Part shown: piece by piece, positions 59,437 through 59,623 of the stretch
Layout: the number at the start of each line of letters is the position of its first letter
Position numbering within the stretch: position 1 is the stretch's first letter
Assembly: GCF_988243305.1 (NCBI RefSeq)
Contig: NZ_OZ547136.1
Length of the DNA: 64,000 bases
Strand: one strand, 5' to 3'
Made by a program: the position numbers and the translations under genes
The notes under the pieces: generated by a model
Database searches by the model: none
What the model was told of the DNA's origin: nothing
The model's input: only the letters and a program-made list of their open reading frames with translations

Positions 59437-59462
59437 TTCGCACCTCATCATCTGCACGCAAT

Positions 59463-59511
59463 ATACTATAGGGGGGTATGCTATATGTCAATGCATACCC
59501 CCCTATAGTAT
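59463..59511. promoter_or_regulatory. frmRAB operator: 19-bp perfect inverted repeat with G6/C6 tracts
   Basis: atactataggggggtatgc (59463..59481) and gcatacccccctatagtat (59493..59511), 11-bp spacer, 27 bp upstream of the frmR ATG. Confidence 0.8.
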
Positions 59512-59623
59512 ATAACACTGGAGAATAAAATTTATCCGGTGAATGTGGTCGGAAAACAAAGAGGAAAGGGGGTGGGGCTAATCGGCAGGGAAGGCCGCCC
59601 CGGATAGCGGGCGGCAGAAGCAA

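Follow-up and report, generated by a model that had tools for sequence, protein, structure and literature searches.

What is the longest perfect inverted repeat of a 64-kb stretch of Escherichia coli DNA (64,000 nucleotides, hereafter the window) doing between frmR and yaiO? This frmR-yaiO intergenic region is 100% identical to that of strain CFSAN061770, and DNA of the region is present in 5,415 of 5,426 complete E. coli genomes. The genes that frame it are the following:

57091-57924, minus strand: frmB, an open reading frame with an esterase domain
58017-59126, minus strand: frmA, an open reading frame with an ADH domain
59161-59436, minus strand: frmR, first gene of frmRAB, an open reading frame for a 91-aa CsoR/RcnR-family (DUF156) repressor (PF02583, E = 3e-23; RefSeq annotation of identical DNA)
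59624-60397, minus strand: yaiO, upstream of frmR and transcribed toward it

Directly after the yaiO stop codon there is a G+C-rich hairpin, GCCGCCC-N8-GGGCGGC (within 59540-59623, minus strand), that has no T run; the hairpin was not scored as an intrinsic terminator, so transcripts of yaiO may continue into the frm promoter. On the far side of yaiO, an adjoining 236-aa open reading frame (60399-61109, minus strand) overlaps the 3' end of a 398-aa one (60958-62154, minus strand) by about 150 nt according to the listing of open reading frames. We take these two to be yaiX and yaiP, of which yaiX is presumably the gene disrupted by an IS element in K-12, and it is apparently uninterrupted in this window.

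A repeat search defined the palindrome as two arms that are 100% complementary to each other. With frmR running on the minus strand from 59436 to 59161, the whole element sits 25 to 77 nt upstream of the frmR start codon:

59461-59481: arm nearer to frmR (proximal), 21 nt, ATATACTATAGGGGGGTATGC
59482-59492: spacer, 11 nt, TATATGTCAAT
59493-59513: arm farther from frmR (distal), 21 nt, GCATACCCCCCTATAGTATAT
59461-59513, no strand assigned: the whole 53-bp palindrome (two 21-nt arms and the 11-nt spacer), described as an FrmR operator overlapping the core frmRAB promoter (PMC5146963)

Its length is far beyond chance: with loops of up to 30 nt allowed, the runner-up in the window has arms of 12 nt, and the longest arms in 20 simulated (Markov-1) windows measure 9 to 14 nt. 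The folding energy of the palindrome as single-stranded DNA is -21.7 kcal/mol, compared with -7.2 +/- 1.9 when the sequence is shuffled (z = -7.5). An earlier sequence-only reading of this DNA had singled out the palindrome and had correctly given its position upstream of frmR, its G6 and C6 tracts and its 11-bp spacer; the palindrome itself was real but the reported 19-bp length of the perfect arms was too short, because the 19-nt strings quoted were only the inner part of the arms and pairing continues for another 2 nt at the outer end of each arm. The same reading held that a perfect palindrome of this length is rare for an E. coli operator, which is plausible, the comparison made here being with this window.

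The internal organization of the palindrome points to a promoter with two repressor sites embedded in it. Exact matches to ATAC-N9-GTAT occur only twice in the 64-kb window, once per arm (starting at 59463 and 59495), and a consensus promoter scan recovers a single match on the frmR strand, TTGACA-17-TAGTAT, with 10 of 12 consensus positions:

59443-59446, minus strand: Shine-Dalgarno sequence GAGG, 6 nt before the frmR ATG, read from the sequence
59463-59468, minus strand: predicted -10 hexamer TAGTAT, in the proximal arm and overlapping the GTAT half of the proximal site (consensus promoter scan)
59463-59479, no strand assigned: proximal FrmR site ATAC-N9-GTAT, ATACCCCCCTATAGTAT on the frmR-sense strand (exact motif match)
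59486-59491, minus strand: predicted -35 hexamer TTGACA, in the 11-nt spacer (consensus promoter scan)
59495-59511, no strand assigned: distal FrmR site ATAC-N9-GTAT in the opposite orientation, with G6 on the frmR-sense strand (exact motif match)

Each arm carries G6 or C6 inside ATAC-N9-GTAT, which is the sequence signature of type I operators of the CsoR/RcnR family (DUF156), and the palindrome lies where an operator of this family is expected, in the promoter of an operon encoding a PF02583 repressor, here frmR. The two sites carry their G6 tract on different strands and so are arranged head to head, and their centers are 32 bp apart, or about three helical turns, compared with the 31 bp given by Denby et al. 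(PMC5146963). The proximal site fills the gap between the -35 and -10 hexamers and overlaps the latter. The distal site begins 3 bp upstream of the -35 and so abuts it from the upstream side. Within the palindrome, the -35 hexamer TTGACA is the only asymmetric promoter element, that is, the one that sets the orientation. This layout is the standard one for repression by promoter occlusion, a step that probably operates here as well; the transcription start of Pfrm in the literature considered is a predicted one, and we expect it near 59455-59458 on the minus strand.

Published work describes the same element. Denby et al. (2016, Sci Rep 6:38879, PMC5146963) recognized the large inverted repeat in Pfrm, centered near -29, as tandem type I FrmR sites, each with ATAC/GTAT flanking a 9-bp G/C-rich tract. 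They reported that EcFrmR binds Pfrm with a Kd of ~220 nM, compared with ~3,600 nM for control DNA, that formaldehyde dissociates the EcFrmR-Pfrm complex, and that FrmR represses in vitro transcription from Pfrm in a formaldehyde-reversible manner (PMC5146963). Their model places two tetramers on the double site, the binding data having been fitted 1:1, and they also consider that a single tetramer might bridge the two sites (PMC5146963). A 2024 study moved both ATAC-N9-GTAT sites into a constitutive promoter, one upstream of the -35 and the other between the -35 and the -10, and obtained FrmR-dependent repression, while a truncated promoter that keeps both sites lost repression at chromosomal FrmR levels (PMC11127321). 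The latter result suggests that flanking DNA may also matter. Leaving aside the work of Rohlhill et al. from 2017, which is said to be a sort-seq mutagenesis study of Pfrm, we came across neither footprinting nor site-directed mutations of the E. coli sites in the literature considered.

This match with the published description bears out the sequence-only reading, which had proposed an operator for the CsoR/RcnR-type repressor FrmR: the operator has been published for the very same sequence, the motif occurs only in the arms, and it is conserved upstream of frmR (see below). The accompanying suggestion that more than one tetramer binds agrees with the published two-tetramer model for the E. 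coli double site; the occupancy may instead be two tetramers per site, as on the Salmonella probe described below, or a single tetramer spanning both. The FrmR-binding and formaldehyde experiments that the reading had proposed are largely published already.

The operator described for E. coli K-12 Pfrm (PMC5146963) is the same element at the same locus; the arms in the window are perfect over 21 nt, whereas K-12-type strains have a G-to-T change at the equivalent of 59480 that leaves 19 perfect nt. In Salmonella Typhimurium, the frmRAPro operator (PMC4528141, PMC5016687) has a core, ATACCCCCCTATAGTATAT, that matches each E. coli arm over 19 nt without a difference, and it is likewise a type I site for an FrmR orthologue for which the AT-rich flank is required for binding. 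The 33-bp Salmonella probe TTCTGATAGTATACCCCCCTATAGTATATGGAG binds two FrmR tetramers at ~1e-7 M each (Osman et al. 2015, 2016, PMC4528141, PMC5016687), and replacement of its ATAC-containing flank, ATAGTATA, abolishes binding (PMC4528141, PMC5016687). As described, Salmonella has a single C6-tract site, whereas in E. coli a pair of such sites flanks the -35 in a head-to-head arrangement; this comparison rests on the published oligonucleotides, the Salmonella promoter being absent from the 80 loci returned by our survey. The RcnR operator in the rcnR-rcnA intergenic region (Iwig and Chivers 2009; Salmonella rcnRAPro, PMC5016687) also consists of two type I sites for a DUF156 repressor, with the form TACT-G/C6-7-N-AGTA, one tetramer per site and an AT-rich inverted repeat flanking the G/C tract. 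The flanking motif is thus TACT/AGTA for RcnR, in contrast to ATAC/GTAT for FrmR. Moreover, the RcnR sites are in direct orientation, with their C tracts on the same strand and their centers 19 bp apart, whereas the FrmR sites face in opposite directions with 32 bp between their centers, an arrangement that creates a long perfect palindrome.

The operator motif for FrmR has been retained in front of frmR orthologues and is rare in other positions. Across 80 FrmR loci, taken from one genome per species, an exact ATAC-N9-GTAT lies at most 160 nt upstream of frmR in 65, as against 3 matches in the other 242 kb of these loci. The proximal site is centered 35 to 37 nt before the ATG in the majority of the 80 loci, among them Escherichia, most other two-site Enterobacterales and most Brucella/Ochrobactrum loci, and 7 to 48 nt from the ATG in the remaining loci; in alphaproteobacterial loci it comes directly after TTGAC. 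A second site is present 32 to 35 bp upstream in Escherichia, Edwardsiella, Providencia, Morganella, Serratia, Aeromonas, Pantoea, Erwinia and Deefgea, and the hexamer that follows the distal site, between the two sites, has TTGAC in the two-site species with the exception of Aeromonas (TTGAT) and Deefgea (TTGCA). Tatumella, the Pasteurellaceae and the sampled Alpha- and Betaproteobacteria have one site only. In most two-site genera the 21-nt arms differ at 2 to 6 positions, and Erwinia has its pair of sites in direct orientation; these imperfect arms and the direct Erwinia sites imply that the functional unit is the site. Hence, the proximal site is conserved across Proteobacteria, and the second site and perfect symmetry are lineage specific. 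Escherichia is the genus characterized by the long perfect palindrome; perfect or near-perfect arms are also found in a mobile frmR variant. In that variant (L013, L015 and L023), the palindrome has 18- to 21-nt arms and a 17-nt spacer, and the tract in both arms is GTGGAG/CTCCAC, which represents the same two changes relative to the E. coli G6, made symmetrically. One of these loci, L013, lies on plasmid 1 of Edwardsiella anguillarum, and the ~90%-identical FrmR is plasmid borne and found in unrelated genera.

Within E. coli the element is single copy and present in 5,410 of the 5,426 complete genomes, with a median of 1 place per genome. Of 5,411 records, 2,858 show no difference over the 76-bp stretch around the palindrome, and a further 2,545 differ at 1 to 3 bases. 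Among six aligned E. coli sequences the site cores are invariant and the sampled variants fall outside them: K-12-type strains have the G-to-T change at the equivalent of 59480 mentioned above, an O145 strain has a G-to-A change at 59493, and the remaining sampled changes are in the flanks. In 92 metagenome contigs, retrieved with a search pattern that fixed the proximal arm, the arms are perfect over 21 nt in about 70, the K-12 allele is present in 12 and the GTATGT allele in 5, and the distal core is intact except in a few low-coverage contigs. The upstream neighbor is more variable. In O157:H7 and O145:H28, fbpC (ferric ABC transporter) replaces yaiO upstream of frmR and the palindrome is kept; homology with the window stops ~16 bp past the distal arm, after GGAGAATAA (59514-59529), which puts the synteny breakpoint right beside the operator. 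Among 5,416 matching records, about 1,100 show no match over most of the part of the query on the yaiO side.

On the basis of these observations, we consider it very probable that the palindrome serves the autoregulated frmRAB promoter as its operator, composed of two oppositely oriented type I FrmR sites. An outward-facing -10 is present in both arms and only the 11-nt spacer, with the -35 TTGACA, sets the direction of transcription. This raises the idea, which we regard as a long shot, that the 53-bp element is a naturally flippable core promoter, in which arm exchange or template switching reverses Pfrm, as in strain FJ_Ec_21 (see below), and keeps the arms perfect. Such arm-to-arm templating (concerted evolution), if true, would account for perfect arms with different G tracts in Escherichia and in the mobile frmR variant.

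A related idea, that the perfect symmetry is itself functional, either through a cruciform or by making the promoter an invertible cassette, seems to us very improbable. In a cassette of this kind, arm exchange would flip the spacer with its -35, switching frmRAB off and firing transcription toward yaiO. One genome has just this configuration: in strain FJ_Ec_21 (NZ_CP143627.1, 162-214, equivalent to 59461-59513 of the window), a K-12-type element has its center exactly inverted, such that the spacer reads ATTGACATATA on the plus strand of the window, the K-12-type G/T mismatch has moved to the other arm, and the TTGACA-17-TAGTAT match lies on the opposite strand, pointing from frmR toward yaiO. 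The perfect or near-perfect arms of the independent mobile variant, built on the different tract GTGGAG, also speak for a role of symmetry. However, the inversion is found in 1 of ~5,400 complete genomes, the next full-length match to the inverted allele being 92.3% identical, and the metagenome contigs yielded 0 inverted junctions as against 93 normal ones. There is no recombinase open reading frame near the palindrome, mismatches between the arms are tolerated by the K-12-type and O145-type alleles, and the arms are imperfect in most genera. A phase-variable promoter switch was accordingly rejected as a classification, given the single inverted genome and the missing recombinase. We see the FJ_Ec_21 inversion as either an assembly artifact or a rare rearrangement mediated by the inverted repeat, and not as a regulated switch.

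Equally improbable in our assessment is that the palindrome acts as an RNA hairpin, either as a terminator or attenuator of yaiO read-through or as a stabilizing stem in the leader of the frm mRNA. The minus-strand intergenic RNA does fold the 21-bp stem stably (-66.8 kcal/mol for 187 nt, z = -5.1), and yaiO transcription heads toward frmR. Nevertheless, the stem is followed on the frmR strand by UGCGUGCAG and not by a T/U run, and a terminator scan of 59300-59750 on both strands returned zero terminator-like sites, on which grounds a Rho-independent terminator was rejected. When 59000-60000 was compared with Rfam under a permissive E-value, the only matches were sub-threshold ones to eukaryotic miRNA precursors, as a generic hairpin gives. 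The predicted promoter lies inside the palindrome, which is centered at -29 in PMC5146963, so that Pfrm transcripts would start downstream of it; the palindrome is retained in O157 and O145 strains despite the different upstream gene, fbpC. Finally, the 2 to 6 mismatches of 21 in other genera, together with the direct Erwinia sites, show that the pairing is not conserved.

The notion that the palindrome is a REP- or MITE-like remnant or a site-specific recombination site lying beside frmR by coincidence, for which the long perfect inverted repeat and the junction of yaiO-type and fbpC-type synteny only ~16 bp beyond the distal arm might be cited, can practically be dismissed: there is one copy per genome (a median of 1 place in 5,410 genomes, and no other copy in the window, on which a repetitive extragenic palindrome or MITE was rejected), the motif accompanies frmR in Gamma-, Beta- and Alphaproteobacteria alike, no transposase or integrase open reading frame adjoins the palindrome, and neither additional copies at unrelated loci nor target-site duplications flanking it were seen.

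Returning to the operator, its mode of action can be pictured from the layout together with the published chemistry. The two FrmR sites bracket the -35, the proximal one covering the spacer between the hexamers and the -10. When formaldehyde is absent, FrmR tetramers, probably at least one per E. coli site, would sit on both sites and block access of RNA polymerase to the promoter. Formaldehyde cross-links Pro2 to Cys35 of FrmR, upon which the repressor comes off the DNA and transcription of frmRAB can proceed. On this view, the perfect palindrome simply results from two near-identical sites, each quasi-palindromic by itself, that face each other, and it carries no separate structural signal.

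The element is already known, and its recognition here is a correct but ordinary observation: the operator, the protein and the effector chemistry were published in 2015-2016, and Pfrm is already in use as a formaldehyde biosensor part, so it carries little weight as a discovery. It does show that a reader with no tools could correctly recognize the operator from the letters alone. For the biology of the family, the comparison makes a small addition, in that it separates a conserved proximal FrmR site from a second site and a symmetry that are specific to particular lineages.
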